The translations under genes were made by a program, and so were the position numbers. Positions 11,665-37,279 of a DNA stretch of 64,000 nt are shown piece after piece. The DNA comes from a virus (taxonomy: Duplodnaviria > Heunggongvirae > Uroviricota > Caudoviricetes): the IMG/VR virus record IMGVR_UViG_3300032318_002198; one strand, 5' to 3'. A model generated the notes under the pieces. It ran no database searches. It was not told where the DNA came from and worked only from the letters and a program-made list of their open reading frames with translations. Each line of letters opens with the position of its first letter. The stretch's first letter is position 1.

Positions 11665-11700
11665 AATTAATATAGTATCCCTGAGAGGATTAATATATTA

Positions 11701-14712: not shown

Positions 14713-14753
14713 ATATGTAAATTAACTAATCTTTTTTATTTAAATATAATCAT

Positions 14754-15035: not shown

Positions 15036-16162
15036 ACAGCAGGTAATGCCGGCGGAGGATTTTCTTCACTGTCATCTTTTTTGTCTTTTACTACAGGACG
15101 AGGTTGATCGAGCATCCAACCAGTATTGATAAATTTACCCAATTTTGTAATTTCACGATCTAAATTATACTTCATAATTTTACTGTCATCTTTTGCCATT
15201 AATTCTTCGTCTTCTGAATTGGTTTTTATATAATTTTCTATGTCTGATTTTTGTGCGGTTAATGCAGTTACTAGGTCGCGATAAAGATATGGAAAACGTT
15301 GTTTTATATAATCTCGATCAGGCGGCAAATCGGCAATATTCATAAAATTCACAAATTGAGTATCCTCTTCCCTCGATGCATCAAATTGATACCGCTCTTT
15401 TCCTTCGATCTGTCTAGTACCTTTTTGAATACTGACCTCAGGAGCGTCATACGGAAATAATTGAAATAGCATTGATCTGTTTGCATAGGTAAAATAATAA
15501 CCACCAGTATTATCACTACCAGATGTACACCAAGTTGTTCCTTGCCCTAAAAAGATATTTGATGAACGATTTAACGTAATATAAATCTTATAATCCTCAT
15601 TATCAATTAACTTCCAAGCTCGAATACTCTTTTTCATGGCCATAGCCTTCATCTTTTCATTATAATCCGACAAGGCTTGCTCATAATGATATACAAGATA
15701 TTGACCTAGATCACGTATACTTTTAAAAATAGGAAGATTTTGATGTAACGGATCCAATAGATTACGCTTCTTCAAGTAATCATATTTGGATAGATTCATA
15801 CCCATCGTGCCATTGATATCTTCCCAAGTATGACCGCCAGAAATATATTTGTCAACTATCCAAGGTACATATTGGCCATTTTTACTGTATGGGATCCCTT
15901 CATACCCTTGCTTTTCTTTGTTGTCCAACTGAGTTAAAAACCACTCAACTAACGCTCGATCATCTATTTTTTCAGCAGTAACAGAAAATCTAGGCTCAAA
16001 TCCTCCGGGATTTAACCGAGCATCACGACGTATGCGACGCGCTAAATCAGGAACCAATTTTTGATTATTAATAACCGATTGGCTACCTTTGGTCAATTGA
16101 ACATTTTCATATAAAAAAGATTCAACTAACCTGATTAATGATCTGATGTTACTGCTATCCAT
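15032..16162 (-). CDS. hypothetical protein (GTTWCT motif), possibly head-internal
   Basis: GQGTTWCTS..RYQF; N-terminal IRSLIRLVE. Confidence 0.55.
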   Translation of the reverse strand: MDSSNIRSLIRLVESFLYENVQLTKGSQSVINNQKLVPDLARRIRRDARLNPGGFEPRFSVTAEKIDDRALVEWFLTQLDNKEKQGYEGIPYSKNGQYVPWIVDKYISGGHTWEDINGTMGMNLSKYDYLKKRNLLDPLHQNLPIFKSIRDLGQYLVYHYEQALSDYNEKMKAMAMKKSIRAWKLIDNEDYKIYITLNRSSNIFLGQGTTWCTSGSDNTGGYYFTYANRSMLFQLFPYDAPEVSIQKGTRQIEGKERYQFDASREEDTQFVNFMNIADLPPDRDYIKQRFPYLYRDLVTALTAQKSDIENYIKTNSEDEELMAKDDSKIMKYNLDREITKLGKFINTGWMLDQPRPVVKDKKDDSEENPPPALPAV

Positions 16163-19468: not shown

Positions 19469-19743
19469 CGCAGGACCCCATGTATAGCACACGCAGCAGT
19501 TGTGTGCTGGTGCGTGGGGTTCGCTGCTGCCCCACGCAGGCTACTATGATACAGCAGGTGATTGTTGAGGGGTTTGCCCCACGCGAACGCCGTCGTAAAT
19601 TTAATTTTGAGGTTTGGGGTTAGCCCCACGCTAGCTGCATCGTGTGCATTTAGCTGCCCGTGGGGTTATTAACCCTAAGGGTAGTAGGGTTATTGCAGAA
19701 ATTGCTATGTGGTGTTATACTGATTTGAGTGTTAGGAGTAGTC

Positions 19744-21303: not shown

Positions 21304-21412
21304 GTGTTGCCTCTATTGCCTATGTGTGCAGTATAGTTGATCCTGTGGTAGAAGTCAAGACCTTTGCAGCGGGGTTTATATATGCAAGGCCTCTACAGCG
21401 GGGTATTGCCGC

Positions 21413-21586
21413 TCAACTGCTCTTCAAGAAATCCGAAAGATGTCTCATAGACATACTGAGGAACGCGACGGAGCAAATAGCCCATGCACAGGCTGCTTCT
21501 TTGTTGCCTTCGCGGTATGCCGATACCCCAACGCCGATGAAGCACCCGGCAAGGATCGATCCTGCGATAAACATGAACAATGACAT
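21413..21586 (-). CDS. small membrane protein (below ORF-track cutoff)
   Basis: MSLFMFIAGSILAGCFIGVG..; AAGGA RBS and own promoter. Confidence 0.5.
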   Translation of the reverse strand: MSLFMFIAGSILAGCFIGVGVSAYREGNKEAACAWAICSVAFLSMSMRHLSDFLKSS

Positions 21587-21656
21587 TGTAGTTCCTTATT
21601 CCTGTGTTGCGATATGAGTACTATAGCAAATGCCGAAGACCCTGTCAACCGAAAGG

Positions 21657-21899
21657 TTATTGCCGTCGCATCCTGCCCCACACACGAGCAAAGAAAGTCT
21701 TAGGTTCTTGTTGCGGGGCCCACCATGCACCCTCTTCACCGCAGGATGTACGAATTGATGGGCCGGGCGTCCTGTGAGTAGTACAGAAGATCCAGTGATA
21801 AGCGATCTTGCCCGTGTCTGCATCGATCCAGTCGATATTCTGTGGGGCAAGGCATTGCTGTGTTTGATGATGACGGCAAGTGGAACAGTCGCGTGACAT
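21657..21899 (-). CDS. small Cys-rich hypothetical protein
   Basis: CSTCRH..C..C..CGEEG. Confidence 0.55.
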   Translation of the reverse strand: MSRDCSTCRHHQTQQCLAPQNIDWIDADTGKIAYHWIFCTTHRTPGPSIRTSCGEEGAWWAPQQEPKTFFARVWGRMRRQ

Positions 21900-22222
21900 A
21901 CAGTTTTACCTCACTCCGGAATCAGTTTGGTGCCACTGTGCAGGTAAATCTCTGCCCCTGGACGACACGTCCACACAGCAGCTTCGAGTATCTCAAAGAT
22001 GAGCTTCGTCTCGAGGGGTTGATTCACGCTGCGATAGTGACGAAAATGACCCTTCGTTTGGCAGATGATCATCTGTGCCGTATGATTGTCGACCTTCATC
22101 AGTGAGATGCCGTTTTCGTCTCGGATCATGTAATTCATAATATAATTCACAGCCGACTCCTTTGTGTTACACAATACCGATATGTTAACACTGATCAAAA
22201 ACCCTGTCAATTCAACGGGCTT

Positions 22223-22720
22223 TTAGATAAGACCCCGTTCGGCGAAACTGACAACCGAGTTGCCTACGACAAAGTGATCCAAGACTCGAACATCCACCAA
22301 CTGTAGGGATGACTTGAGGGTTTGTGTCAAGTATTCATCTGCTCGCGAAGGTTCTGCTGAGCCTGAGGGATGATTGTGTGCAAGCACCACAGCAGCTGAA
22401 TTCAGCAGGATAGACTCGCGTACTACCTCCCGAGGGTATACACTGGTCTGCGTTAGTGTCCCGCGGAACAAGGTGCGAGCTTCGATCAAGCGATGATGAG
22501 CATCAAGGAACAACACAGCAAACTCCTCACGACCCTGCTGCGATGCTTCGGCGAAGTAGAGTCTGAGGTAATCTTTGATGCTCACAGGGCTATCGAATAT
22601 CGGTCCCGTGCGAACACGAGCCGACAAGATACGTAGAGCCTGTGCTACGATGTCCTCATCGGTTGACGATGAGTGGTTGACAACGTACACAGGGGGATCA
22701 CACGACTGAGCAGTTGTCAT
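22223..22720 (-). CDS. radC: RadC-like JAB-domain protein
   Basis: [33 protein letters not shown]. Confidence 0.9.
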
Positions 22721-23003
22721 GCTGTTCCCCTTGCGATTATCGCTTGATGTTCTTCTTGCTCTTCTGAGGAGCGCGGGATTGTTCGGCGAACGTGGCCGGT
22801 TTGGTTCCCACTGCGTGTTCTGCGGCCCAGATCAACACAACCTTGTCCTTCTCGGCTTGGAGTTTCCGTTGATTCTCGGGGAGCATGTATGCAGGCATGG
22901 CTTGACGGGTTTTGGACACGATTTGGGTTCCTTGTTGTTGAGCGAGTGATTAGATTATAGCAGGGTCTCAGTAAAATACAAAGACCCTGCTATGTGTACG
23001 GAT

Positions 23004-23318
23004 TTAGGCCATCTCCGCTTCACGTGCAGCAGCACGGGCACGAGCCTCACGCTTACGGATCGCATCGGGCGTCATGCTCAACGTGCGAGCGGGCTTTGCA
23101 GCAGGTGCAGCAGGCGCAGCAGCAACGGGCGCAGCGAGCACAGCAGCTTCAGCGCGGTCCCAGTTGGACTTGATGTAAGCACGCGCCAGTTGACGTGCGA
23201 AGCCGAGGCCCATCACTGCCGGGATGACGGACACTTGGTCTTGTCCGTTGCTCTTAGCTGCGGCGATAATATCGCGCACACGTTGGGCCTTGGAGTTCTT
23301 TTGCAAGGTATTTGCCAT
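23004..23318 (-). CDS. basic Ala-rich hypothetical protein
   Basis: AAGGA RBS, own promoter; basic C-terminal tail. Confidence 0.6.
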   Translation of the reverse strand: MANTLQKNSKAQRVRDIIAAAKSNGQDQVSVIPAVMGLGFARQLARAYIKSNWDRAEAAVLAAPVAAAPAAPAAKPARTLSMTPDAIRKREARARAAAREAEMA

Positions 23319-23960
23319 TTCTGTTTCCTTTCACTGCAACATCGCAGTACTAGTAATGTAACACAGATCAGAAACCCTATCAACCGACAGGGTATTCTGA
23401 TTTCAACGCTTTTGGCGCTTGGTCTTCATTTCGCGATTGGCCTCAGAACGAGCAGCCTTGTTCGCAGCCGCGCGGCGCTTGCGAGCCAGTTCCAGCATGC
23501 GCTCTTGGGGATCATCCTCCATCGCCATGAGACCCATAGTAGCACGAAGATCGTTCGCTTGCTTCCGATTCATCTCAACTCCTGAGTGGCTACTGCAACT
23601 TCGCAGTATCAATAATGTAATAGGATTGAAAAACCCTGTCAATCACTTGGATATAGTTTTTTCTGTGTTACAACGATGTATGGCGTTAGCACCAAAAAGA
23701 AACCATATCAACCGATCGGGTATTACCCCATTCTGCTCGATCACTGGGCCTTCTTCGCCTTTCGTGGGGATGGCCCCACGTTTCGTCGTCCTGGTTCTTC
23801 TGCGATCGTGTGGGGTTCTACAGCCCCACAAAACGATACCCAGTGGACCTAGATAGGACATGGGGTAACAAACCCCGTGAGAAGATCACCTAGTGAACCT
23901 AAGTGATCAGTGAGAGTGATGTGATGATCTAACCACTATGAAAGTGGTTAGATGATGTGG

Positions 23961-24422
23961 TTAGGTTTGGAGTTGGAGTTGTTCCAACTTTGCCATAATC
24001 TCTGTGTAGAAGATTTGATATTTGACCATACGGGCGATATCCTTTTCAGTAATGCCCTTGAGTCTACGGATATCTGTGTTGTGACGTAGATCCGCAAGTT
24101 TTACACGCATAGCATCCACGTTTGCAAATACAGTTTGTTTGTATTCGTCGTAGGTCTGTCCGGGCTGTTTAGTCAAGGCTGTTATGCCCTTGATTACACG
24201 TTCAGTGATTCCTGCTTCACGCAAGTCCTTATATGTAACGTTGGTATCTTCAATGACATCGTGCCCCAGAGCAATGCTCATGAGTTCTTCGTCATCCGTC
24301 TTAAGATAGTGCATAACCTTAAGGGGATGGAGGATATAGGGGTTGCCACCCTTGTCGTATTGTCCAGCATGAGCATTAGTGACTATCACCAACATCTTGC
24401 CTAATAGTTCGCCTTTTTTCAT
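23961..24422 (-). CDS. HD-domain (p)ppGpp hydrolase-like protein (MESH1/SpoT-HD family)
   Basis: AHAGQYDKGGNPYILHP, GHDVIEDT, VKLADLRHN. Confidence 0.8.
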   Translation of the reverse strand: MKKGELLGKMLVIVTNAHAGQYDKGGNPYILHPLKVMHYLKTDDEELMSIALGHDVIEDTNVTYKDLREAGITERVIKGITALTKQPGQTYDEYKQTVFANVDAMRVKLADLRHNTDIRRLKGITEKDIARMVKYQIFYTEIMAKLEQLQLQT

Positions 24423-24519
24423 AGTTGCCTAATTGTTGTACAGCGGGGTTTATATATGTAAGAACCTTACAGCGGGGTATTTACGTTCTTGCTATATACA
24501 TACTTGTAGTATATTGCCA

Positions 24520-24750
24520 TCACAGTGTAGTGTCAAGAGACCAACCTTCTATCTCAAGTTCTTCCACAGCTTGGTTAAATAGATCTTCCCAAAAGTGTAC
24601 ACTTTCTGCTACCCTAATATCTTTCTTTCTTTTTGAAAGATGAGTTCCTTTTTGGTATACGATCCACACATGATTTTCGCAATAGCTACGATTAGGCACA
24701 GTGGGATGTGTACAACCCTCTCCATGTCCTATCCAAGTACAAGTTTTCAT
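24520..24750 (-). CDS. small Cys/His zinc-binding protein
   Basis: CTWIG..GC..SYCENH. Confidence 0.6.
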   Translation of the reverse strand: MKTCTWIGHGEGCTHPTVPNRSYCENHVWIVYQKGTHLSKRKKDIRVAESVHFWEDLFNQAVEELEIEGWSLDTTL

Positions 24751-24980
24751 TTCCCCTCCTCCAAGATTCTGTCAATGTCACGACGTTCCTTGGGGGAAGC
24801 ATTCTTGTAATATTGTATACCGACCATGACTCCATTACGATAAGCAATGAATTCTAATACTAGAACGATAGCTAGAAAAGAAAGGATCAACCACCAATGA
24901 GTGCCTGTGGGGTCAACAGCATAAGCCATTAACCCTACACAAGACAACGCCGCAAGTTTTTGTAACCAAGTATTAATCAT
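24747..24980 (-). CDS. small membrane protein
   Basis: two hydrophobic segments; ATGA overlaps with neighbours. Confidence 0.6.
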   Translation of the reverse strand: MINTWLQKLAALSCVGLMAYAVDPTGTHWWLILSFLAIVLVLEFIAYRNGVMVGIQYYKNASPKERRDIDRILEEGK

Positions 24981-25843
24981 GTGCGACGCATAACTGTAGT
25001 CTTTGCCATAGCTTGCCAGTTTTCTGGAAATGCTTCGCGTAAATCTGCAACCTTCAGGATTGTTCTCAATGACAGTTCTCGGAGATTGTCTTGATTACCT
25101 ACTACAAATTCGACTACTTCGTCCTTGGCAATATCGGATAAACCATCTCGATCATCTAACATTCCATCATCGACTACTTGTTTAATTCTTAGCATTCTTT
25201 CTCGAGTTGTTGACATCTCGAGGTCAATATAATGACAACGTGATTCTAATGCTTCGAGGTGGGCACGAATCTTTTTACTACGAACAAGATCAAACTTAAT
25301 ATTGGTGATAAAAATGGCACTCCCACTGAACTCAAATCGGTCCGGAATGCCTTCTGAACGAAGAATACGACTATCGGTGTTCCATGCGATCCATCTTCGT
25401 TTACTCGAATCCAGTGCTCCTTTGAGCAAATTCAACGATAATTCATCCATAAGGATATCGTCACAGTCATCGAAGACTAGTACGTTCTTAGGCTTGGAAT
25501 ATTCGTAGAGTTTAGAATAAAGGCCGATTGCCGATGAAGCACCCTTGACAATCTCGTATCTGGGTTTCTTTTCGGCGATGGTATTGAATAGATCGTCTTT
25601 TTGGAGCACTTCTTCTACTCCAAAACTCTTGCCCACACCCGGTGGACCACTAACGATCATAGCACGAACAATGCCTTGTTTTACAGCCTTGGTCATGTCT
25701 GTGAGGATTTGAAATCTCTCACGTAATCGATCAATGATTTGTTGATCGGTTTCTCTAGCTACTGCTAGTTCTCTCTGTTTGATTGCATCCGAATCAAATT
25801 CGAGAATTGTACTGCCTTTATCTGCTTTCGATGGTCTACCCAT
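24977..25843 (-). CDS. AAA+ family ATPase
   Basis: GPPGVGKS, VFDDCD, IFITN, ALESRC. Confidence 0.85.
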   Translation of the reverse strand: MGRPSKADKGSTILEFDSDAIKQRELAVARETDQQIIDRLRERFQILTDMTKAVKQGIVRAMIVSGPPGVGKSFGVEEVLQKDDLFNTIAEKKPRYEIVKGASSAIGLYSKLYEYSKPKNVLVFDDCDDILMDELSLNLLKGALDSSKRRWIAWNTDSRILRSEGIPDRFEFSGSAIFITNIKFDLVRSKKIRAHLEALESRCHYIDLEMSTTRERMLRIKQVVDDGMLDDRDGLSDIAKDEVVEFVVGNQDNLRELSLRTILKVADLREAFPENWQAMAKTTVMRRT

Positions 25844-26116
25844 TAAATTACCTCCGATTGGTTATAACATTTGTGTATTATAACCTCTCGGGGGTATTAA
25901 AGTCAATCGCGTTCTCGTCCAAGTCGATTTTGTATCAATGCTTTTCGGCGTTCTTCCCAATCACGATCTTCTCTGGTGGGTTTGGGTGCAGGCTTGCGAC
26001 CACTGACAGTAACAGGTTCATCATTTTGGATGTCCAGGGAATCCTCGTTGTCAAAATCGAGGTAATCATCTGGGTTAATACGCGGCACTTTCTTTCTCCT
26101 TTGGGTTTTAAATGTT

Positions 26117-26193
<77 letters not shown>

Positions 26194-26229
26194 ACATTGA
26201 TCTTATTATATGGTGGATTTATTTATCCG

Positions 26230-26442
26230 TCAAGATTCTGACTTAGTGATACTCGGCTTGAACAAAAACGAACACAATATCGAAATCCCCCAAGCCTGTA
26301 GCCAGGTAATTTCATTCACACCGGTGATTGCACCGACCAAAGCTTTGTTCCACAACCACCAAACGGGCAATGACAACACTGCACTGAGCAGCACACCGAT
26401 AATAATCGTGCCAATGAAAACCGTTACTACGTTCATGTTCAA
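26230..26442 (-). CDS. small membrane protein
   Basis: hydrophobic; WWLWN..ITWLQAWG. Confidence 0.6.
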   Translation of the reverse strand: MNMNVVTVFIGTIIIGVLLSAVLSLPVWWLWNKALVGAITGVNEITWLQAWGISILCSFLFKPSITKSES

Positions 26443-26668
26443 ACTCCAAACAGAAAGTAATCCAACTCAACAGTCAGTTGAGCACTCTTTTGTTCTTCTG
26501 CAATCTCTTGCAGTTCAGCGTTGGTTTCCTGTTCAACACCTTCAACGAACAAAGCCCACAAAGAGTCATGACGTTCTTCGACGCTATTACGCTTTACAAA
26601 TGCAATATATTTCATATCGACTCCTGTGTGTTACTGTTCTTGCAGTTTATGCTCGAACAAAGACCCTG

Positions 26669-26884
26669 TCAACCAATCGAGTATGTTTCGCCGCGGCGCA
26701 CGCCAATCTTGTCCAACAGTTCCTCGTTCGTTATGCTCAGCCGGCAAAGTTCCACAGCGGCCTGATCCATCTGGGCCAGTGTCACGCCCGTGTGGTCTTG
26801 CCGCTTCCGGGCAGGCCACGAATACGTACCAATTCCATTGTGTTCTCCTGTGTTTGTAAAGCCCGCCGAAGCGGGCTGGTTCAT
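26669..26884 (-). CDS. hypothetical protein
   Basis: ATG overlaps (ATGA) the restored stop of the upstream gene. Confidence 0.5.
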   Translation of the reverse strand: MNQPASAGFTNTGEHNGIGTYSWPARKRQDHTGVTLAQMDQAAVELCRLSITNEELLDKIGVRRGETYSIG

Positions 26885-27505
26885 GCTTCGATCAACCGTT
26901 CCAGCAGCATGCAAGGGTCGAAGGTTTCCCACGGCCCCGCCGCCTGTGCCACCGTCACCACCGCACAGCGCTGACCCGCGCCGGCCAGCGCCGCCCACGC
27001 CGCCGCCGCCGCCGTCTCCGCCGCCTCCGCCGCCTCCGCCGCCTCCGCCGGCCAGCGCCGCTTCCGCCGCCTCCGCCGCCTCCCTCGCCGCCTCCGCCGC
27101 AGCCTTTGTGCGCTCGGTGGTCATGGTCCGCCATTCACGGCCAAACCCGTGTTTGTCCGCCAACGGTTGGAGCGTAGGCAACACAGCACCCCACATCCAA
27201 TCCAAAATTATGGCTAGGCGTTCCTTTTCCTTCGCCCGCCCTGTACCCGCTGCGCGTGGCAGCAGAGACTTCCAACGGTCGGAGTTGCGCATGTTGTCGG
27301 GCATGGAATCTTGTACTTCGATGATCCACTTGCCGATTACCTTGGACATGCAATCCGGGATATCGTCGGTGAGTTCTCCGGTCAAGGCGAGATTGATTGC
27401 GGCGATGGAGCATGCCGCCTCTTCGTTGCCCAAGCCCGAAGGCAGGGTCATGCCGGCCAGCTTTGCAGCGATGGCGGTGTGTTGTTCAAGTGTGATAGTG
27501 CTCAT
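26881..27505 (-). pseudogene. Ala-rich repeat protein with an apparent 1-nt frameshift near 27050
   Basis: AAEAAR repeats turn into poly-Gly; removing one base restores AAEAAE..WETFDPCMLLERLIEA*. Confidence 0.65.
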
Positions 27506-27802
27506 TTGGTTTCTCCTGTGTCTCAGTGTGTGTACTATAACAGAGCTCAAAGACCCAGTCAAGTCCGATTAAGGTGGTTTAGGAGTGCGTCTGCGGGCGT
27601 GTCGCACGGGTCGCTCCAAGGGCTTAGGTCTTCGATCACGTGGCAGATTACGATACCATCGGGATCTAGGATCTCGCGAGTGTAGATTTTGCCCGAAGTG
27701 TAGTCTTCTACAAGATCGCCTTTGGTGTACATTTCTTGCTCCTATCGTTTCAATGTATGTACTATAACAGAGCTCAAAGACCCAGTCAATCGACGGGTCA
27801 TT

Positions 27803-27837
27803 AAAAAAGACTTAGTATGTCCCCACACTAAGTCTTT
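27803..27837 (-). terminator. intrinsic terminator
   Basis: AAAGACTTAGT/ACTAAGTCTTT stem with T-run on the minus strand. Confidence 0.65.
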
Positions 27838-27864
27838 GCCTGTCGGATACAGTATTAGTGGGGT

Positions 27865-28110
27865 TTAGACCAAACGTCCTGCACGACTTCCGGTGACATC
27901 ACGTGCGCTGATTCTGTATGCGCTACGACCTTCGGTGTTTGTATTACGTTGAACACGTAGGCCAACACTGCGTAGCTCGCTCATGCGAGCACGTAGATTC
28001 ATGATGCCAAATGTTGAACGAGCTTGTGCTGCACTGAGAGTGCGGCCTGTACCACGCAAGTATTGCTCGAGAAATTCATTCTGCGTGACTGTTAGTGTTG
28101 TAAAACTCAT
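27865..28110 (-). CDS. winged helix-turn-helix DNA-binding protein
   Basis: GRTLSAAQARSTFGIMNLRARMSELRSVGL..Y. Confidence 0.65.
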   Translation of the reverse strand: MSFTTLTVTQNEFLEQYLRGTGRTLSAAQARSTFGIMNLRARMSELRSVGLRVQRNTNTEGRSAYRISARDVTGSRAGRLV

Positions 28111-28191
28111 TTTGTTTTCCTTAATCAGAACTGCTTTTAAACAGTTATAATTAAGTATAAACAAAGTGATTAGGTATTACAACTCTCAATC

Positions 28192-28410
28192 TTACCAAAT
28201 TCCGTATTTAAATTCCTTGTTTACATAGTGCTCAATCAACTTACGTTGACACGATGTAATCAAGTCGCCATCATTATCCAGTACAATGAATCTCACTGGA
28301 CAAGTTCCCCACCCGCCTGTGCGGAGGAAGGCAGCAAACCATTTGCGATGTTCCTTGTTCGATGGATCAAACGAAACAAGTGGCCTGGAAAAGAAAGACA
28401 GTCTGCTCAT
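28192..28410 (-). CDS. hypothetical protein
   Basis: FDPSNKEHR..WGTCPVRF. Confidence 0.6.
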   Translation of the reverse strand: MSRLSFFSRPLVSFDPSNKEHRKWFAAFLRTGGWGTCPVRFIVLDNDGDLITSCQRKLIEHYVNKEFKYGIW

Positions 28411-28514
28411 AATTCCATGCTGTAGTTATTGTAGGTCGGGACGCTTTGATAACAAAGTCATTTAAGAATACGCTTCGGTGCGACTCTCCCAGTGCCTCAC
28501 ACGGCAGGGGGTAT

Positions 28515-28937
28515 TTAGAACGGAGCGTCTTCGAGAGCAGCATCCGCCTTGGTGGCAGTTGCTTGCTCCTTGGTCACCGTGCTCTTGGGCGCAGTCTTCT
28601 TCGGAGCAGTCTTCTTGGCAGCAATGCCTTCCAGGGTGGGTTTGGCCTTCTTGGCCTTGGGTTCCTTGGCAACCTTGGAATTCCGTTTGTCGTCCTCTGC
28701 AAGCAGTGCGGCATGCACTTCACGATTGGTGACACCATCCTTGGTTGCGAAATCGATGCTGAGCATGTATGCCACAGCAGCCTCTTTGGTCATCGGCTCA
28801 CGCAATTCGATGAGGTCGATATCGGTATGGCCATTCTTCTGCAGGACCTTGACACGGGTCATGTCATTTGCAAAACGAACAGTCATTTCACCATTGAGGC
28901 GGCTCACTCCGGCAATCGAAAAAGTTTTATCAGTCAT
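28515..28937 (-). CDS. hypothetical protein with Lys/Ala-rich histone-like tail
   Basis: AAGGA RBS; KKTAPKKTAPK tail. Confidence 0.65.
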   Translation of the reverse strand: MTDKTFSIAGVSRLNGEMTVRFANDMTRVKVLQKNGHTDIDLIELREPMTKEAAVAYMLSIDFATKDGVTNREVHAALLAEDDKRNSKVAKEPKAKKAKPTLEGIAAKKTAPKKTAPKSTVTKEQATATKADAALEDAPF

Positions 28938-30085
28938 ATCATCTTCCTTTCTGTGTATGTGTAAGTTGACCTGCTTTCGCAGTGTTATTATTATGCAGTC
29001 AATTGAATATTCTGTCAACCAGAAGTTGTGTTGCTTTTAAGTAACATCAAAAGCTACTCTGTCCAAAATATCTTGCACAGGTAGATCAGGTGTTTCCCAC
29101 ACTTGTGCAGTCAGTTCTTGTTGGAAACTTAGCAAGGTTCCATCACTAAGCCGCAAAGCATTGACTACAGAGATTCGATACTCGGGTTCGAGTGAATTGA
29201 TCATCGTATTGATACGGACATCAAGAGCGGTCATTTTCATCCTTATCCAAACGAACAAAAGCATAGACTACGGCAGAAATGAAAATTCCCAGTCCGAGTC
29301 CTATTGCTAGAGAAAGAGCGTCAATTTCCATCATGACTCCTGTGTATGTTGTACAAAGTATAACAGGGACATAAGTCCCTGTCAAGTACAGAAGCCTCGT
29401 TGGCTTACGGGTTTTTACGAGGGCGCCCACGTTTGCGCGGTTGGGTAACCTCAACTTCTGCGGATTTGTCATCGTCGTTGTCGTTGTCGTTGAAAACACG
29501 ACCCGCGATGTGACGCAACCCCCAAGTGAATACTTGTACAGTACCACCAGTAGAACTGCGATATTCTTGCAATGGCTTGTTCATAGTTTCCTTGTGAACT
29601 GTTTCAAAATGGGTTCAGCTAGATCCGTTGTCTGCACTTCATCGAATGCAGCGGCAATCATCAATTCATAGACCACTCTAGCCACATGGCCATATGTATG
29701 AATGATCTCCTGGACCTGCTCTATATTTTCAGCAGACCACAGGAGATCAGCGATTGCATGCTGTTGAGCCGTTGCCAGCTCAAGTTGCATTAGGCGAGGA
29801 TCCCCTTGATGTTGTGCAAACCCACCATTACGACATGGCCGGGCTCGATTTCAACACCAATACCGCTCCAGGTGCTGTTGCCGAACTTGACCGTTCGCTT
29901 TTCCTTGACGATACCCACCTTGTGGCTCATGCCCACTCGTTCCTTGTTGAAACGACCGAGTTGAACAACGGTACCGGGTTGAACTGCTGCATACTTGACC
30001 ATTTTGTGCTCCTTTGCTAGGTCAGTTGAAAAAACTTACTGTTCTTGCAGTTTAACAGAGTCCTAAAACCCTGTCAACCTACGGG

Positions 30086-30346
30086 TTATTGCGACATCTT
30101 GAAAACTTCTTGACGGAACTCGTTGAACGTGCCCACAAACGTGCCACGATAGCGATCGCTGTTCAAACGACCTTGTGCCTTGGCACGACCCAGTGCCTTG
30201 ACAAAATTCTCACGCGAACTGCACTGGGCTTTGGCATAAACCACACCGCCGGGGATTTCCCTGTAGGCAAATGTGACACCGCCGAAATTGCTGATCTCAT
30301 CCTTGTGATCCAGATTGCGAACGTGCATGAAATGAACTTTTTCCAT
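30086..30346 (-). CDS. hypothetical protein
   Basis: AGGAG RBS, own promoter; AQCSSRENFVKALGRAKA. Confidence 0.65.
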   Translation of the reverse strand: MEKVHFMHVRNLDHKDEISNFGGVTFAYREIPGGVVYAKAQCSSRENFVKALGRAKAQGRLNSDRYRGTFVGTFNEFRQEVFKMSQ

Positions 30347-30405
30347 ATCAACTCCTGTTGTGTTTCAATGTGTGTACTATAACAGAGTTCAAAGACCCTG
30401 TCAAC

Positions 30406-30783
30406 TTATCGGCTAAAACGCTGGATCACCTCAATCAGCGCAATAGCCAGATCATGTTCGTCACGCAATACCGCATCCGAAGCCAACTGGCGAACTTCTG
30501 CCAGCGTACCAACTTGCGTAACTTCGTGCACCAGAACACCGTTGCTACGCAGGACTTCGAGGTTATCCTTCAAAACCTTCTCAGCTGGGGCTGCACTATC
30601 GTCGTAATACGACGGGCGAGTGTCTTCCACACGGAAATGAACCAGTTGAGAACCTTGCTTCTCGGTGAGGTCCTTGGCTTCCTTGAGACCCAGGCCAGTC
30701 AGTTGACGCACAGCCTTGATCACACCCACACGATTGTAGTTTTGATGATCAGGAAAGATAATGTTGAAATGCTTGGAAATCAT
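30406..30783 (-). CDS. ribosomal protein bL12 (L7/L12) C-terminal-domain-containing protein
   Basis: VGVIKAVRQLTGLGLKEAKDLTE signature. Confidence 0.75.
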   Translation of the reverse strand: MISKHFNIIFPDHQNYNRVGVIKAVRQLTGLGLKEAKDLTEKQGSQLVHFRVEDTRPSYYDDSAAPAEKVLKDNLEVLRSNGVLVHEVTQVGTLAEVRQLASDAVLRDEHDLAIALIEVIQRFSR

Positions 30784-30853
30784 TTACGTTCCTTTGTGTT
30801 TCGCAGTGTCAGTATAATAACAGGATCCAAAGACCCTGTCAACTGAAGGTGTA

Positions 30854-31326
30854 TTACTTCAAGGGTTCGTACGCTTGAAACTCGTGGATTTGAAACTTGA
30901 GTATTGATTTCTCAAGGATCCCCTTCGGGAAAGTGATGGTCGCGTCGTAGACACCTTGATCAAGGGTTAAGGATCCAAGGATATGGATTGACTTCCGAAT
31001 AGATTTACAGAAGTCATGTGCTTCTTCAAGGGTGGGCTTCTCAACATAACCCTTAAATTCACCCAGAGAATTGATCACAGTGACATGGACTCGATAGCTC
31101 ATTTCGGTTGCCCCTTACTGTTGTTATCCCCAATTGCCTGCATGACTCCTGGGGTCATGCACACCTCCAAAAGGCCACGCATCATGTTTGAACCATGCTG
31201 AATCGACTGATCCAGCAGTTCTTGATAGTCATGCTCGTATCGTTGCAATCGAGCATTTTCATGCTCCAGTGTTTCGATGCGATTCTGCATCTTGATGATC
31301 TGATAGGCGAAATCTACGACATTCAT
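30854..31326 (-). other. two small hypothetical ORFs (30854..31102, 31099..31326)
   Basis: ATGA overlap, AGGAG RBS. Confidence 0.55.
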
Positions 31327-31454
31327 TTTGTCGCGGCTCCTTGCTGTTGATGTGTGTATTATGTGCTCAGGCGCACAACTAGCACTCGGGAACGCATCCA
31401 CTGAGTGAACGAAGTGTCTCCATTTCATGGTAGAACACAATACGGGCTGCTTCT

Positions 31455-31673
31455 TCAAGAGTATAGTTCATTCATGATGTCACTGATCTCTGCATCAACG
31501 ACTTCATCTTCATCATCTTCGTCATATCGAATGATGTCATTTGCACGAGCGAATTCCTTCACATCGTCCTCACTCATCCAACCCAACAGATCATTGATCA
31601 AACTATCCTTGTCCAATGCACCTTGTTCAACCATGTCCAAGAGGCGACAGGTATACTCACGAGTCCTTGCCAT
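31455..31673 (-). CDS. small acidic protein
   Basis: AAGGAG RBS; DEDDEDE-rich. Confidence 0.6.
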   Translation of the reverse strand: MARTREYTCRLLDMVEQGALDKDSLINDLLGWMSEDDVKEFARANDIIRYDEDDEDEVVDAEISDIMNELYS

Positions 31674-31867
31674 GATCTTCTCCTTACAGTGTTCTTAGAT
31701 CAGTCTCAGGGATGAAACGATTGGGATGTTTTGCTTTGTAAGTTTGGATAAGAGTTTGGATCTTGTCCTTGACTTGTTGAACACGTTCCTGAAACATCAT
31801 CAACTCCTGTTTGCTTACCATGACTCTAGTATAAGCTCGAACTAAAGCCAGAGCAACTGAAGGGTCT

Positions 31868-32125
31868 TTAGCGCATGAAACTGATGATGCCGTTGATTAC
31901 TCCTGCACCTGTAAGCATAATGCTGGCTGCATTAACTACGATCTGTGCATTGATTTTGACCCGAATAGCCCATGCCAGAAAACACATTGTTCCCACAAAG
32001 AAACAAAATGTATTCCAAGGCCAAGTAGCGGGGCCTACACCGTTAAGTGCATGACCCACCAAAATGAAAACCGCACCAGTCCATTGCAGGATGGAATCGA
32101 TTTGTTTGTAGGTTAGATGAATCAT
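31868..32125 (-). CDS. small multi-pass membrane protein
   Basis: three hydrophobic segments. Confidence 0.6.
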   Translation of the reverse strand: MIHLTYKQIDSILQWTGAVFILVGHALNGVGPATWPWNTFCFFVGTMCFLAWAIRVKINAQIVVNAASIMLTGAGVINGIISFMR

Positions 32126-32136
32126 TTTTACTCCTG

Positions 32137-32724
32137 TCAAGCAAACGGATCAACGAAAACAGGATGAGACCATTCGTTACGACACATGAAATTCTCCTTA
32201 TGGAGATCAAAAACAACTTTTTCGTAATCACCGTGTTCTTCGTCGATCTTCTTCAACAACTTGATTGCCCGCTTGAGATCCGAGTTAGGCTTTACGTCGA
32301 ATCCAATGGACTTGGCAGTATCGAGGAATTTTGAATTGTCTGATGAGCATTCGGAATCCAGCCCGGCGACAACCAAAGGCTCGAACTCTCGCCAAGTTTT
32401 CTTAGGAAGGCGTCGTAGACGTTCCATAGCCACAACAAAGAGATCGTCGTTGTCGCTGCCTTTTTTAGCACGGATATACCGCACACCGTAAATCTTAGGA
32501 AAGAACGGATTGTGTTTGGATTCTTTGATGACCTCGTTGACAAAGGTCAAATAAGGAAAATTGTCCTCAATACTTCCGACCTTGTAAGCAATCTTCGAAG
32601 ATTTCGAACCGAACACTTCGCCATAAATACCTGAACCGATCAAGCGATAGTCGCCCTGAAACTTTATCATCTCTTTTACAAAAGCATCAGGATTCGGAGT
32701 TTTGATGTGTTCGATTTTGATCAT
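32137..32724 (-). CDS. protein-kinase-like / APH-fold kinase
   Basis: IGSGIYGEVF, AYK, MERL, DLHKENFM, VFVDP. Confidence 0.75.
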   Translation of the reverse strand: MIKIEHIKTPNPDAFVKEMIKFQGDYRLIGSGIYGEVFGSKSSKIAYKVGSIEDNFPYLTFVNEVIKESKHNPFFPKIYGVRYIRAKKGSDNDDLFVVAMERLRRLPKKTWREFEPLVVAGLDSECSSDNSKFLDTAKSIGFDVKPNSDLKRAIKLLKKIDEEHGDYEKVVFDLHKENFMCRNEWSHPVFVDPFA

Positions 32725-32798
32725 TTGTGTTGCGGGTTGTTAACTGCAATGAATGCAGTATACGACATCGACTATACCCTGTCAACTGTAGGGTTGTT

Positions 32799-32874
32799 TG
32801 GTAGGACCGGGGAGGTTCGAACTCCCGACAAACGGATTAAAAGTCCGCTGCTCTACCGACTGAGCTACGATCCC
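32799..32874 (-). tRNA. tRNA-Lys (anticodon TTT)
   Basis: GGGATCG TAGCTCAGTCGGTAGAGC..CTTTTAA..GTTCGAA..CGGTCCT A CCA. Confidence 0.95.
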
Positions 32875-33458
32875 AAAAACTTAAATCTCCATCTCTCTGG
32901 CAACCTTAACAGCCTGAAGCATGGCCTTTGCAACGGCTTCCATCTCATTCAGAATTCCGAATCTAATGTAGACCGGGTCACTTGTAATCTCCTTCTCCTT
33001 ATAGTGAAGTGAGATTTCGTCCCCACAATTGACCTCATACTTATAGTCAAGATCGGTAGACACAGTTATGGAAACGCTGTTCTCGATGCTCATGTTTAAG
33101 TCCTTTTCAGTTACCATATTGAAACACATTGCGCTAGTTCTTCTCTGTTTGTCCGCACTGCCTACGCACGGTAGAGTCAATGTGTTTCAATATGGTGCCA
33201 ATACAGGCACCATGTGTATTTCAGTAATCTCCGAGATCGTAACGATTCTCGTACTCTGCATCAGGATCCGGATAATAGGCATCCTCGTCGACCGGTTCGT
33301 ACTCGTAACGCTCATCGTGATCACGCTCCAGAGAATCGTGATGCACAAAATCAACATCGTCGTCTTCGAACATCTTCAACTCCTTCTTTGCTACAGTTTC
33401 AACAGTATAAGCTCAAACAAAGACCCTGTCAACCATTGGGTTGTTCATTCCGTCCCTG

Positions 33459-33851
33459 TTAACTAACGAATTCGACCATTTCATCGAGCTTACGGTTGAA
33501 CTTCTTCATCCAAGCCTTGTAGAACTCGTGACCTGCATCCAACGACACATAATCGTCGCCTTGCATACCTTGCTCGCTGTACGCTACATCGTCGTCTGGC
33601 AGACCATGTGCATTGAGGAACTTTTTCAGTTCGCGTTTGAACAGGCTGTCAGTGTAGATCAAACCGTCTCTCTCGACATCCCAGGTATTGGTGTCAAAGT
33701 AGACGCGCAGTTCGCCGCATAGATCATCCGGAGAATGGAACGTGCTCAACCAACAATATGCTTTTTCCAACTGAATGTCGGTGATTGTCACAGCCTTCGC
33801 TTTTCTGCTCCAAAATCCGTCACCACAGGTGTTCAAAATTACCTTGTTCAT
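33459..33851 (-). CDS. hypothetical protein
   Basis: AAGGAG RBS, own promoter; YSEQGMQG motif. Confidence 0.65.
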   Translation of the reverse strand: MNKVILNTCGDGFWSRKAKAVTITDIQLEKAYCWLSTFHSPDDLCGELRVYFDTNTWDVERDGLIYTDSLFKRELKKFLNAHGLPDDDVAYSEQGMQGDDYVSLDAGHEFYKAWMKKFNRKLDEMVEFVS

Positions 33852-33922
33852 TGCTTGCTCCTTGGTGTTTCGCAATATCAGTACTATAACAGGATCCAAA
33901 GACCCTGTCAATTACTGGGTCT

Positions 33923-34174
33923 TTACGCAAACCTTGCATAGGAACGAATTGCGGTATATTCTTCATACACCTCGGTGAACTGGGGAATGATCCCTTGACT
34001 CTTGCATGCATTCACGAATTCACCGGCATCACAGTCTTCTTCAAGATAGGCAAACTCGCCTTTGCGATATGAGTATGGGGAGATCTTGTGTCGAATACCC
34101 AATTGGTCGATCATGTTCATGGGTACTTCAATCCAACCATGACCCGGGTCAGAGATAAAACGAATGTTCATCAA
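33923..34174 (-). CDS. hypothetical protein
   Basis: DPGHGW..YLEEDCDA; AAGGAG RBS. Confidence 0.65.
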   Translation of the reverse strand: MMNIRFISDPGHGWIEVPMNMIDQLGIRHKISPYSYRKGEFAYLEEDCDAGEFVNACKSQGIIPQFTEVYEEYTAIRSYARFA

Positions 34175-34236
34175 GTGCTCCTTGTTGCAATGCAGATATT
34201 ATAGCACCTCCCAAGGAGGTGCTATTAGTCGAACCC

Positions 34237-34707
34237 TTACCAACTGGAGCGGTATTCGAATTCCCACTGTTCATGCAGTGTAAGGCAATCGTCTATGATC
34301 CGGATGGTATTCTCCAAATCATCGAAGTAATGTTGATCGTAATCGGTGCTGCCGAAGAAGAATCCGTCGGCAGTGGGCAACAGTTCCGAAGCCCGCGCAC
34401 AATCCTCCAACACCTGTTTGCAGAGCTCTTTGAGCGCTTCCAGTTGTCCACGACCCACTGGGTAACTGCCACAGTCGTCCTTGCCCTCCTGGACATTGCG
34501 TACAAACCAGCCGTGAACAGCATTGACCTTGCGCCAATAGCCTGCTTCGATGCTGACTTCTTTGACGGGAGAAGCATCGCCGAAACGACCTTTCCGATTT
34601 GCCAACTCAGGAAACACTTCTGCAATGAGCTTCATCTTAGCCTCATCTCCTTCGTGGAAATACTTGCTCATGTACCGCTTGGCATTCAAATACATATCCA
34701 GACCCAT
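34237..34707 (-). CDS. hypothetical phage protein
   Basis: MGLDMY..YWRKVNAVHGWF..LLPT..GFFFGS; AAGGAG RBS. Confidence 0.7.
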   Translation of the reverse strand: MGLDMYLNAKRYMSKYFHEGDEAKMKLIAEVFPELANRKGRFGDASPVKEVSIEAGYWRKVNAVHGWFVRNVQEGKDDCGSYPVGRGQLEALKELCKQVLEDCARASELLPTADGFFFGSTDYDQHYFDDLENTIRIIDDCLTLHEQWEFEYRSSW

Positions 34708-35644
34708 GATCTACTCCTTACTGGTTGCAATGTGTGTATTATGTGCTGACACTATGTCTGTGTCAAACACTTATTCAAAAACCCTAGTAAATCCTCGGAT
34801 TTACCCTGCTTGTCGGATGAGAATCATTGTATAGGCTCCGGGGTTGAGTGGGTGGCCGTCAGTGCCGTGGCTTACTTGGTCATAACAACTCGGACAGAAC
34901 GTCCCCGTGATGCCGTAGTAATTTCGCAAGTGCCACCACTGAGGTGACTCTGGCTGTCCAAACTCACGAGTATCGTGAGTACCACAATTGTTGCAAGTCA
35001 TTGTGATTGTAAACATGATGCTCGAAACTCCTCAAAGAGATATCCGTCCTCAATGGCTGCGGTCAACGTATGACCATTACAGATCACACGATCACCCGCA
35101 CTGTGTTCCATGATGTATTCGGAATACTGCTGATCCAACTCGAAATTGTCGAATGCGTGATCGAACTCTTCTTCAGTCATTGCCGTTTCTTCCAAAGAAA
35201 ACCGAGACTCATACCGTCAACAAAACTGCGTTTGAATGCGGAATCAGGAGCCCAAAGGATGTATCCCAGCACAAGACCCGATACCCACATAAAAATGTGT
35301 GAAACTACTTCAATCATCATAGACTCCTTTTACTTGATGTCAGCAGTATAACTGAAAACAAAGACCCAATCTACTGGTAGGTCTTTAGGAATGAGTGTAG
35401 CCGTCACGCTCAATGCCTAACCACATACCACACCACCGCACCATAACACAATCCCATCCGGGCTGCACCGTTCGACGGAATGCAAGAAAGCTCAAACCTT
35501 GGTTGTCTTGCAGCCACTTGCGAAGCAGTGATTGCCGCTGTGCCTTGTTCAGTTGAACCATCTTTTTCTCCTGTTTTCTAACTTGAACACAGTATAACAA
35601 AGAACAAAGACCCAGTCAATGGCCAGGTCTTTGATCTCAAACAA

Positions 35645-36559
35645 TCACTGCGTCAACACATATTCAGCAAGATTGCGCCAGTCACGCCCACCACCAGCAC
35701 GAATACGAGCAACAGCCTGCAAACTGCGCAAACTGATCTCCTGCGCACGATCACCAACGGATTCAATCAACTGCAAACTGTCACGCAGATGACCGCGATC
35801 CATTTCGGGCATGAACTCGTCACTTTCAGCCAACACACCCATACGCTCCAACTTTTGCGCACGAGTCATAGCCAAATCAACTACATATGCACGAGTCTTC
35901 AACGCCAAATCCAATTGGCTACGACGCATGTTACTGATGAACACAACCCGCCCATTGAAGATGAAACTGCGCGGCAAATCCTCATCACGCAGATCTGCAT
36001 TCCAGGAAATGATACGGCGATCATAACTGTCCAACGCACCCTTGAGCAGATTCAACGCAACTGGATCACGCAACACACTGTCACAGTCATCAAAAACAAT
36101 GACTGAATCCTTGTTCATGAACAACTCACGATACAAACCCTTGGCGGTACTGTAACCCTTGATCTGCTTGAAACTGCGCTCGGGACTTTCAGTTTCACGA
36201 CCCGAAACATCCTTCAAACCAGCAGCGGTCAAACCTGCTACTACAGTGTGAGTCTTACCCAACCCACCAGGCCCAGTCACAATCAAACTGACTGCACGAC
36301 CACGAGCAACCATGGTAACCAAATCAGTTACGAATTGAAAACGCTGGTTGATGTTCCAAGCACTTTGCTCAGGATCCACGGCATCACCTGCCACTCCACG
36401 TACTTCAGCACGAACATCATCACCACGAATGGGCACACTCTTGTAACCAGCCTTGGCCATCATCTTGACCACGCGAGTTTGATCATAACTCTTGACAATG
36501 CGCTGACCATTGGCCACGCCCACCCACTTACCATCCTGAAAAATGATTTCTGTAGCCAC
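35645..36559 (-). CDS. AAA+ family ATPase, paralog of 24977..25843
   Basis: GPGGLGKT, VFDDCD, LNLLKGALDS, VFISN. Confidence 0.85.
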   Translation of the reverse strand: MATEIIFQDGKWVGVANGQRIVKSYDQTRVVKMMAKAGYKSVPIRGDDVRAEVRGVAGDAVDPEQSAWNINQRFQFVTDLVTMVARGRAVSLIVTGPGGLGKTHTVVAGLTAAGLKDVSGRETESPERSFKQIKGYSTAKGLYRELFMNKDSVIVFDDCDSVLRDPVALNLLKGALDSYDRRIISWNADLRDEDLPRSFIFNGRVVFISNMRRSQLDLALKTRAYVVDLAMTRAQKLERMGVLAESDEFMPEMDRGHLRDSLQLIESVGDRAQEISLRSLQAVARIRAGGGRDWRNLAEYVLTQ

Positions 36560-36692
36560 AAACTACTCCTTAACAGTGAAACAACACATGCACTATAACA
36601 GAAAACAATACCCTACTCAATCATAGGGTCTTAAACTACGGCAGGAACTCATTGGCCTTGCGGTAAAAGTCCACTGTACAACAATTACCAAA

Positions 36693-37088
36693 CTATGAAA
36701 AAAGGCGAACTACCACAGCCTCCGCATACGGCGTCAACGTTCGGTACAGTTTGCTACCTTCGTAGGTGTTGCCACAATACCAAACACCATCCTTGAAAAT
36801 GTAATACCACTCACAATTGGCGTTATTACATTTCGTGAAGAACTCTTCAAAATTCGCATAGTCTCGCGATCCGACACCACGTGCCTCGGCACACCCTCTC
36901 CAGCGGTTCTTGAAATAACCTTCTTCCAAAAAACTACGATCTCCATGGCTGATTAGTTTTTTGACATCACTATGAATAGCGTAATCTTGCAGTTGAGCAC
37001 CAACACCCTCCAAATGACCATCGTAATGAACATAAACAGCACTACACACATTGCCAACCATCATACCTACAAAACTATGAGGTCTCAT
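36693..37088 (-). CDS. hypothetical protein
   Basis: AVYVHYDG..GVG..EWYYIF; first gene of the leftward block. Confidence 0.6.
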   Translation of the reverse strand: MRPHSFVGMMVGNVCSAVYVHYDGHLEGVGAQLQDYAIHSDVKKLISHGDRSFLEEGYFKNRWRGCAEARGVGSRDYANFEEFFTKCNNANCEWYYIFKDGVWYCGNTYEGSKLYRTLTPYAEAVVVRLFS

Positions 37089-37279
37089 TAAGGACTCCTC
37101 GATGTTGCAAAACCCACACTATATGCTCTACCTAAAACCCTGTCAATCAGTCTACTATCTACCCCACACTTACTTTCACCCTCCCCAGTTTACCTAAACC
37201 CCACTTCACGGGGTCCACCCTACCCCACGACACTACTACCACTATCATGGGGTAAACACACGGGGTACGTGATACTATA

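Follow-up and report, generated by a model that had tools for sequence, protein, structure and literature searches.

The window analysed here, a 64,000-nt stretch of the virus record IMGVR_UViG_3300032318_002198 to which all coordinates refer, contains a leftward block of small, early-type genes in which the same promoter recurs again and again, often with an inverted repeat placed symmetrically around its -35 box. This arrangement raises the question whether the palindrome is an operator, at which one protein would switch the whole block, or a structural element that belongs to the boundaries between genes. An earlier note on this DNA had proposed a palindromic operator for a single dimeric regulator, with a winged helix-turn-helix (wHTH) protein encoded in the block as candidate, and had added that the repeats might also serve as recombination points of a gene-cassette array. 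Our analysis favours another interpretation, which we consider probable: each repeat is a composite cassette of promoter and stem-loop, situated in a hyperplastic early region and of the kind described for T4-type phages as early promoter/stem-loop elements (PeSLs), and not the binding site of a master regulator. Judged by its sequence, the palindrome is most likely an intergenic hairpin that carries the -35 box in its loop, and this hairpin is probably a terminator.

A promoter array in the leftward gene block

The block (21330..37146, minus strand) comprises approximately 45 small genes, two transfer RNA (tRNA) genes and 25 sigma70-like promoters, which were identified by a consensus scan of the minus strand between 21.3 and 37.2 kb. 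The 25 promoters fall within 16 kb, and most open reading frames (ORFs) of this region have no Pfam match. The promoter boxes are close to the consensus (TTGACA or TTGACT, a spacer of 17 bp, TATAGT or TATACT), and 11 of the 25 promoters have an extended -10 box with TG one base 5' of the -10. A spacer of the GGGT type is present in 19 promoters and not in the other six, which include those of tRNA-Arg and of an AAA ATPase gene. The GGGT-type unit consists, in this order, of TTGACA, GGGTCTTTG, a variable stretch of 6-8 nt, (TGT)TATAnT, a leader of 20-45 nt, AGGAG and ATG; the AGGAG is situated 20-45 nt 3' of the -10 box and 5-9 nt 5' of the ATG, so that the unit ends with the Shine-Dalgarno sequence and the start codon of a small gene. 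The recurrence of early-type sigma70 promoters in front of small genes, on which the earlier note was built, is thereby confirmed.

A scan of the window for TTGACWGGGTCTTT with up to two mismatches returned 16 matches, where 1.0 was expected, and every promoter copy lies on the minus strand between 21635 and 37146. For the 27-nt dyad AAAGACCC-N11-GGGTCTTT with up to three mismatches, six matches were obtained against 0.12 expected. The copy at 33898-33924 is perfect, as had been claimed, and the near-perfect copies noted before were recovered at 27776, 30064, 31846, 32772, 33419, 35360 and 35606. The upstream arm AAAGACCC, at -13 to -6 and with at most two mismatches, is found at 9 of the 19 GGGT-type promoters but in only 0.5% of the 8-mers of the block (binomial 2e-16), indicating that the upstream half-site is real and better conserved than expected by chance. 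Stop codons concentrate at -14 and -11, within this 5' arm. Some promoters form near-identical subfamilies, even at spacer and leader positions that should be free to vary (27789 with 27562, and 33911 with 30842). Four apparent ORFs that start at the TTG of TTGACA (33459..33911, 26669..27562, 23403..23642 and 21911..22210) were correctly suspected to be artefacts of the motif. A rule by which promoters without the arm follow an ORF that ends in the TGA of TTGACA holds for 27562 and 26672, and it was abandoned as a general rule because automatic frame choice across the family was too crude to support it.

A hairpin shared across the phage family

Relatives of the window, coded L for fetched loci and G for contigs, were collected in two sets: a motif-bearing set obtained by a scan for the exact 14-mer, and 80 relatives picked by similarity of their AAA protein, independently of the motif. 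In the family, the distance between ACCC and GGGT peaks at 11 nt (36 copies with TTGA in the loop and 28 without) and 12 nt (14 with and 23 without), against roughly 1-14 and typically 5-9 copies at each of the other spacings. The plain copies, which lack the -35 box in the loop, are terminator-like hairpins with a mean folding energy of -9.2 kcal/mol and a stop codon in the 5' arm, and in 12 cases a TTGACA begins 12-16 nt downstream of them. In the relatives these plain copies stand directly after a stop codon; their stem is G+C-rich and 6-10 bp long, their effective loop is short, and a run of up to nine T follows (for example TTAAGACCCTA-CTAACCA-TAGGGTCTTTTTTTTT, AATAACCCTA-N7-TAGGGTTATT and AAGACCCTA-N7-TAGGGTCTTTTTTTTT). 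Particularly informative are L119 and L121, which are 96% identical and at one site read AAAGACCC, followed by either TGCGGAGGCTC or TACGGTTGACTC, followed by GGGTCTTTTTTTTGGCAGTATAAT: stem, T-run and -10 box are alike, and only one of the two has a -35 box in the loop. This pair and the plain copies identify the window dyad as the intergenic hairpin of the family with a -35 box in its loop, and as far as the sequence tells, GGGTCTTTG is the 3' arm of this hairpin together with the start of its T-run.

The abundance of the motif depends on the lineage. The lineage of G003 and G005 has 31 copies with at most one mismatch, or 33 with at most two, in approximately 25 kb and on one strand, while the large related contigs G001 and G002 have three copies and one copy, respectively. 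The 80 protein-selected relatives contain 629 sigma70-like sites on the gene strand versus 76 on the opposite strand; their spacers differ and are lineage-specific, and many of them have G+C-rich hairpins in the spacer or around the -35 box. Within the spacer, GGGTCTTTG is far more conserved than the following 6-8 nt among phages with proteins that are only 35-70% identical.

Some relatives have spacer or upstream words of their own. The early promoters of L121, L126 and L132 share the spacer word TGGTAAAACC (or GGTAATACC), with a slightly variable offset from the -35 box and without obvious hairpin potential. In L045, L029 and L111, which belong to the 31-copy lineage, a second word, CGGCACTCC(N2)CCC, is located approximately 20-30 nt 5' of several promoters, and in L087 this word sits in a hairpin, CCGGGGC-ACTTCA-GCCCCGG, directly 5' of the -35 box. 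A tandem repeat of approximately 11 nt, similar to AAAATTCTCTC, differs in copy number between L087 (1369-1424) and L075 (4610-4625), which are 99% identical.

Complementarity of the two arms

The types of arm correspond to each other: AAGACCC occurs together with GGGTCTT and ATAACCC with GGGTTAT (counts 10, 0; 4, 10). The L107 contig alone contains three distinct and perfect 10-bp stems around the -35 box, formed by the self-complementary pairs AAAGACCC/GGGTCTTT, TATAACCC/GGGTTATA and AATAACCC/GGGTTATT, and such a variety of stems within one genome is hard to reconcile with a single regulator. In an alignment of 36 distinct copies with the -35 box in the loop, in which 4 of the 10 pairs were fixed by selection and related sequences can inflate the counts, 76.9% of the cells were paired (70.6 +/- 1.5% in 500 shuffles), 45 cells had changed on both sides (26.5 in the shuffles) and the covariation score was 0.220 (0.123 in the shuffles). 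None of the 500 shuffles reached any of these values, and when the partner arm was slid, at most 50.6% of the cells were paired. In the protein-selected relatives, the complementarity between upstream segment and spacer within one promoter exceeded that of permuted pairings (z -7.9), and the two halves of the spacer were likewise complementary beyond permuted pairings (z -5.7).

Predicted folding of the window units

A stable fold was predicted for 12 of 20 window units, with energies of -10.6 to -23.5 kcal/mol and z values of -1.1 to -7.4; five of these folds straddle the -35 box and seven are internal or variant. The mean folding energy in the window was -11.9 kcal/mol, compared to -8.4 kcal/mol after shuffling of segments, and the best two terminator-like matches of a simple scan are both cassette elements (35633-35605 and 29384-29361). 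An Rfam search returned the two tRNAs only and no known RNA family at the repeats.

All promoters described in this and the following paragraph are on the minus strand. The minimum free energy (MFE) structure is the hairpin straddling the -35 box at five promoters. At 35619 (35591..35633), it is formed by CAAAGACCTGG and CTGGGTCTTTG with TTGA in the loop and a T-rich tail (-16.2 kcal/mol, z -3.0), and this is the top terminator-like match. The promoter at 35373 (35345..35386) has a degenerate -35 box, TAGATT, between the arms AAAGACCTAC and TTGGGTCTTT (-11.0 kcal/mol, z -1.4), whereas 27789 (27761..27802) folds as AATGACCCGTC-GATT-GACTGGGTC (-13.5 kcal/mol, z -2.95). The promoter at 23383 (23355..23401), with the -35 box TTGATA, lies within a 15-bp hairpin, AUCAGAA.ACCCUGUC-GGUU-GAUAGGGUUUCUGAU (-19.3 kcal/mol, z -4.4), and the arms AAAAGCCCGUU and GACAGGGUUUUU at 22210 (22182..22224) pair across a loop spacing of N12 with inclusion of a G-U pair (-10.6 kcal/mol, z -2.0). 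In an alternative hairpin, the 3' half of the -35 box and GGGTC pair with bases before or in the extended -10 box. This internal form is the predicted fold at 33911 (33883..33924), where the promoter with the perfect dyad has TGACAGGGTC-TTTG-GATCCTGTTA as its MFE structure (-13.9 kcal/mol, z -2.4), at 30842 (30814..30842; no upstream arm, 10 bp with the loop UUUG, -16.5 kcal/mol, z -3.3), at 30404 (30376..30404; 9 bp, -10.9 kcal/mol, z -1.1), at 30077 (30049..30090; arm AATAACCC, spacer GGGTTTTAG, -16.3 kcal/mol, z -2.9) and at 29385 (29357..29385), where TGACAGGGAC-TTAT-GTCCCTGTTA is also a terminator-like match (-17.3 kcal/mol, z -4.1). Variant forms were predicted at 34766 (34738..34766), a promoter without GGGT spacer in which TGACAC, using the -35 box, pairs with GTGTCA (-11.6 kcal/mol, z -2.4), and at 22993 (22954..22993), where ATAGCAGGGTCTT and GAGACCCTGCTAT form a stem of approximately 13 bp, TATAAT overlaps the end of the 3' arm and ATAGCA occupies the place of the -35 box (-23.5 kcal/mol, z -7.4).

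The eight promoters for which no stable fold was predicted include the first of the block at 37146 (37118..37146; TTGACA, GGGTTTTAG, TATAGT), which has neither upstream arm nor hairpin (MFE -2.3 kcal/mol, z +1.5), and two promoters without upstream arm that are preceded by an ORF ending in the TGA of the -35 box, namely 27562 (27534..27562; TGA inside TTGACT) and 26672 (26644..26672; a frame of 297 codons, TGA inside TTGACA); five more complete this group. No stable hairpin is present at 33404..33445, where the upstream arm is AACAACCC with two mismatches, or at 21620..21661, which has the spacer GGGTCTTCG and the arm AATAACCT with three mismatches. The promoter directly 3' of tRNA-Lys (32757..32798) combines the arm AACAACCC with the spacer GGGTATAGT and a short ACCCT/AGGGT stem, the variant promoter at 31828..31870 (TTGCTC, 17 bp, TATACT) has the arm TAAAGACCC and an altered 3' arm, GGCTTTAG, and the promoter at 23614..23642 has the spacer GGGTTTTTC and no arm. 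Besides 34766, the promoters without GGGT spacer are those of tRNA-Arg(TCT) (26205..26233), of the AAA ATPase gene 24977-25843 (25877..25906) and three further consensus matches at 28990..29018, 24508..24536 and 21330..21358. On the plus strand, a plain family hairpin, TTATTAACCC-N11-GGGTTATTGC, is located at 19666..19696 and abuts a rightward promoter-like site (TTGCAG, 17 bp, TATACT).

The leaders fall into subfamilies as well, and leaders are common to diverged phages. One subfamily (26644-26620 and 30049-30025 on the minus strand, and many relatives) has a hairpin, ACTG-CAAGAA-CAGT, right after the -10 box, and others are characterized by GTACAGACATCGCA or ACTACTGACATGATGAA. Of the two tRNA genes, both on the minus strand, tRNA-Arg(TCT) (26117-26193) has its own promoter, and tRNA-Lys(TTT) (32799-32874), which shares 89% identity with the tRNA segment of attP in the Haemophilus phages HP1 and HP2, has a GGGT-type promoter within 14 nt downstream.

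A proposed model for the cassettes and their possible role in gene plasticity

In the model that we propose, the 5' part of a unit provides the stop codon of the preceding ORF within the A-rich 5' arm, (T)AA(A/T)(G/A)ACCC, and the middle part is a loop of 11-12 nt that holds the -35 box TTGACA. The 3' part, the arm GGGTC and a TTTG(T)-rich stretch, is simultaneously the first half of the 17-bp spacer, after which the extended -10 box (TGT)TATAnT, a short leader, AGGAG and ATG follow. Early in infection, host RNA polymerase with sigma70 would initiate at each unit. When a transcript comes in from upstream, its hairpin may form, either as the structure straddling the -35 box or as the alternative between the 3' half of the -35 box and the extended -10 box, and might attenuate read-through, protect the 3' end, or both. 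The near-identity of units over 50-90 bp could offer a substrate for homologous recombination, by which genes would be added, removed, duplicated and reordered.

Three pairs of relatives bear on this last step. L079 and L023 (99.5% identical) differ by an indel of 222 bp that comprises a promoter and an ORF and is flanked by a tRNA gene and the promoter after it. Between L075 and L087, a 434-bp ORF indel has its right boundary in the hairpin before a promoter, and the homology of L119 and L121 ends right after the promoter leader, with different genes thereafter. On a larger scale, only approximately 12 genes of the block are common to the window and G003, and their arrangement differs by at least three transpositions and by one duplication, although the flanks are syntenic (helicase 81% identical). 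The recombination step is thus partly supported, by a few breakpoints in relatives and by scrambled gene order; the rest of it we infer. The suggestion that the repeats are recombination points of a cassette array stands as far as gain, loss or replacement of genes at cassettes in the three pairs and the altered gene order are concerned. In a systematic but underpowered test of breakpoints (13 indels), 4 of 46 boundaries fell in promoter cassettes compared to 3.5% at random.

Besides this weak test, several observations weigh against the interpretation as promoter/stem-loop cassettes. Eight of the 20 window promoters have no stable hairpin, yet GGGTCTTTG is kept in them. Two positions of AATAACCC, the upstream arm found most often in the motif-bearing set, do not match GGGTCTTT, and within the set of plain hairpins the covariation was no greater than in shuffles. 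For efficient intrinsic termination a loop of 11 nt is long, and the window copies have short T-runs. Folds of the sense strand were more stable than those of the antisense strand, but permuted arm pairings showed an equal difference; this strand test was therefore dropped as evidence for RNA, and an action of the structure as RNA rather than DNA is unsupported by it. Finally, no close relative of the window was found among GenBank phages at the DNA level or among the fetched loci. For the strict conservation of GGGTCTTTG at promoters without a pairing partner, the sole account that we can offer is common descent: the word may be kept there because all copies derive from one amplified cassette.

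Alternative explanations

Common descent might even suffice. A single cassette from a terminator-promoter junction could have been amplified and homogenised, leaving a relic of concerted evolution in which the arms and GGGTCTTTG serve as homology and nothing else. The near-identical promoter subfamilies, including their free spacer and leader positions, would fit such a history, as would the lineage-dependent copy number, the many arm pairs that are chimeric or mismatched and the eight promoters without hairpin. We nevertheless regard this explanation as unlikely, because mere homology would not account for the far better conservation of GGGTCTTTG than of the following 6-8 nt across phages with proteins of 35-70% identity, for the compensatory covariation of outer stem pairs or for a hairpin potential that is higher, in window and relatives alike, than in shuffled sequences.

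We attach a similarly low probability to the operator regulon, in which a dimeric phage protein, for instance the wHTH protein, or a host protein would bind AAAGACCC-N11-GGGTCTTT, or GGGTCTTTG alone, over the -35 box and switch the early block on or off. GGGTCTTTG is near-invariant beside the -35 box even where its pairing partner is missing, the arms keep a fixed spacing of 11-12 nt, and the centre of symmetry falls on the -35 box, a place at which RNA polymerase would be blocked by a repressor. Other lineages have different conserved spacer words that are not hairpin-like, such as TGGTAAAACC, and the wHTH gene does lie within the block (27865-28164, PF14090, E 2.9e-6). A single dimeric regulator is nonetheless not supported by our data: the upstream half is missing at about half of the promoters, plain hairpins away from any -35 box, continuously paired on the inside and equipped with T-runs, contain the same dyad, and single genomes hold several self-complementary versions that one protein could hardly read. 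Moreover, the motif is abundant in some lineages only, and the distribution of the wHTH protein does not track it, which speaks against the wHTH protein as cognate regulator. Its best homolog (78% identity) is encoded in G006 (L139), the promoters of which lack the GGGTCTTT spacer, whereas the homolog in G003, with its 31 motif copies, is only 34% identical, and the gene is absent at the syntenic place in five motif-bearing relatives (L045, L023, L107, L104 and L022). No further DNA-binding domain was detected among twenty early proteins scanned, ten small ones included. With regard to a host regulator or mimicry of host promoters, a search of 185,579 species genomes for the 15-mer TTGACAGGGTCTTTG gave scattered single matches, which were uninformative, and no host genome was enriched for it.

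A combination of both functions is conceivable, though we think it rather improbable: the GGGTCTTTG box, with or without the upstream arm, may additionally be a genuine protein-binding site that would place 19 to more than 30 early promoters under the common control of a factor from phage or host, and lineage-specific boxes such as TGGTAAAACC would co-evolve with this factor. In that case, one piece of DNA would be promoter, hairpin and operator at once.

Very unlikely, in our estimation, is a structure that acts at the level of DNA instead of RNA, as a cruciform or a hairpin of single-stranded DNA that functions in recombination or replication, comparable to integron attC sites or to the promoters of phage N4. 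Structure is conserved while sequence varies, a strand-specific G-U signal is missing, some indel breakpoints fall in the elements, and mapping in RB49 and phi1 placed PeSL crossovers in the stem-loop (PMC2839356), all of which would agree with this explanation. Against it, the scanned ORFs yielded no recognisable recombinase or virion RNA polymerase, plain copies are followed by T-runs and stand directly after stop codons, which fits transcription terminators, and the sigma70 consensus is complete. The closer analogy to integrons was rejected: nothing but AAC/GTT is common to the arms and the attC core sites, and the scanned ORFs included no recognisable integrase.

Identity of the phage and neighbouring genes

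The window encodes a DnaB-like helicase, a primase, a DNA ligase and tail-fibre-like proteins, and one of its virion proteins is 52% identical to a protein of cyanophage S-RIM32. By helicase and NrdC.10-like AAA ATPase, the nearest isolates are the Pseudomonas giant phage PA5oct and its kin, with approximately 50% identity, and related IMG/VR contigs reach 355 kb; the window therefore derives from an uncultured giant phage of the wider PA5oct group. Among the window genes, none was recognised as a T4 core gene, and accordingly we do not class it as a T4-like myovirus. The leftward array adjoins a non-coding region of 1 kb.

Several early genes of the block, all on the minus strand, encode recognisable proteins. 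The AAA ATPases encoded at 24977-25843 and 35645-36559 are paralogous (approximately 35% identical); the former, which is 50% identical to a PA5oct protein and approximately 40% identical to NrdC.10-like proteins of T4-type phages, is kept in more than 100 related viral contigs. An early protein of 125 amino acids (30406-30783) has the C-terminal domain of ribosomal protein L7/L12 (PF00542, E 2.1e-10, above the curated cut-off), and the ORF present in L075 and absent from L087 contains a stretch, IKAIR..GLKEAKDL, that by eye resembles this protein. The gene at 22223-22720 codes for a protein with a RadC-like JAB domain (E 1.9e-41), and the product of 23961-24422 is a weak match to HD-domain proteins. 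The G+C content is approximately 30% in the rightward replication genes (1-16000), where an HNH homing endonuclease is encoded at 2575-4317, compared to 42-54% between 16 and 44 kb and 37-40% beyond.

Comparison with known systems

Operators that overlap the -35 box, such as those of lambda CII, resemble the window repeats in having repeated half-sites that flank the -35 box at a fixed distance. However, the CII sites are direct repeats, TTGC-N6-TTGC, at a weak -35 box, whereas the window repeats are inverted around a consensus -35 box; half of the promoters lack them, their sequence changes without loss of complementarity, and they are also found away from promoters. A palindrome at a -35 box is thus not automatically an operator.

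Intrinsic terminators, a class that includes bidirectional ones flanked by A- and T-runs, are matched by the plain copies in relatives with their G+C-rich stem, short effective loop and T-run, and two window units pass a simple terminator scan. The window units differ from this class in their loop of 11 nt, or 4-7 nt where the -35 box joins the stem, and in a T-run that is only TTTG(T)TT, and for them termination is a prediction. One possible origin of the cassettes would be the fusion of a terminator hairpin with the next promoter, such that the -35 box came to lie in the loop, and both states are kept in close relatives. For PA5oct, the nearest cultured relative, transcription by the host polymerase was reported, along with 32 promoters (boxes TTGAC and TATAATA) and 36 terminators of the stem-loop type (Lood et al., 2020, PMC7318152); in the text consulted, promoters and terminators are listed separately, and neither fused cassettes nor a conserved spacer box are described (PMC7318152). 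Likewise, we found no description of promoter/hairpin cassettes for PA5oct-type phages in the literature.

The closest parallel is provided by the PeSLs of the T4-type phages RB49/phi1, T4/PST and KVP40/nt-1, which are composites in which a sigma70-type early promoter is joined with a stem-loop, act as terminators, reside in hyperplastic regions and mediate gene shuffling (Arbiol et al., 2010, PMC2839356; Comeau et al., 2014, PMC4122927). Like these, the window repeats are intergenic units, approximately 70-100 bp in length, and the early region that contains them is hyperplastic, with a wealth of small ORFans; the units combine a near-consensus sigma70 promoter (TTGACA, 17 bp, TATAnT) with a stem-loop, an upstream A-rich stretch, a Shine-Dalgarno sequence and a start codon. 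The sequence of the stem-loop varies with the lineage in both systems (A3-4G3-loop-C3T3-4 in nt-1, A3GACCC-loop-GGGTCT3 in the window), and the units are associated with gene indels or replacements between close relatives. In contrast to the PeSL phages, the window phage is not T4-like and has PA5oct-type giant phages as nearest isolates, and in one form of its units the loop contains the -35 box and the 5' arm includes the preceding gene's stop codon. Promoter activity, terminator activity and the formation of mini-circles were shown experimentally for the PeSLs of RB49 and phi1 (PMC2839356, PMC4122927), while the window cassettes are known from their sequence. For annotation, the cassettes explain false TTG starts, supply boundaries of transcription units for the approximately 45 small early genes and mark places at which relatives are likely to differ in gene content. 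If our interpretation is correct, promoter/stem-loop gene cassettes, so far published for T4-type phages only, extend to uncultured giant phages related to PA5oct.

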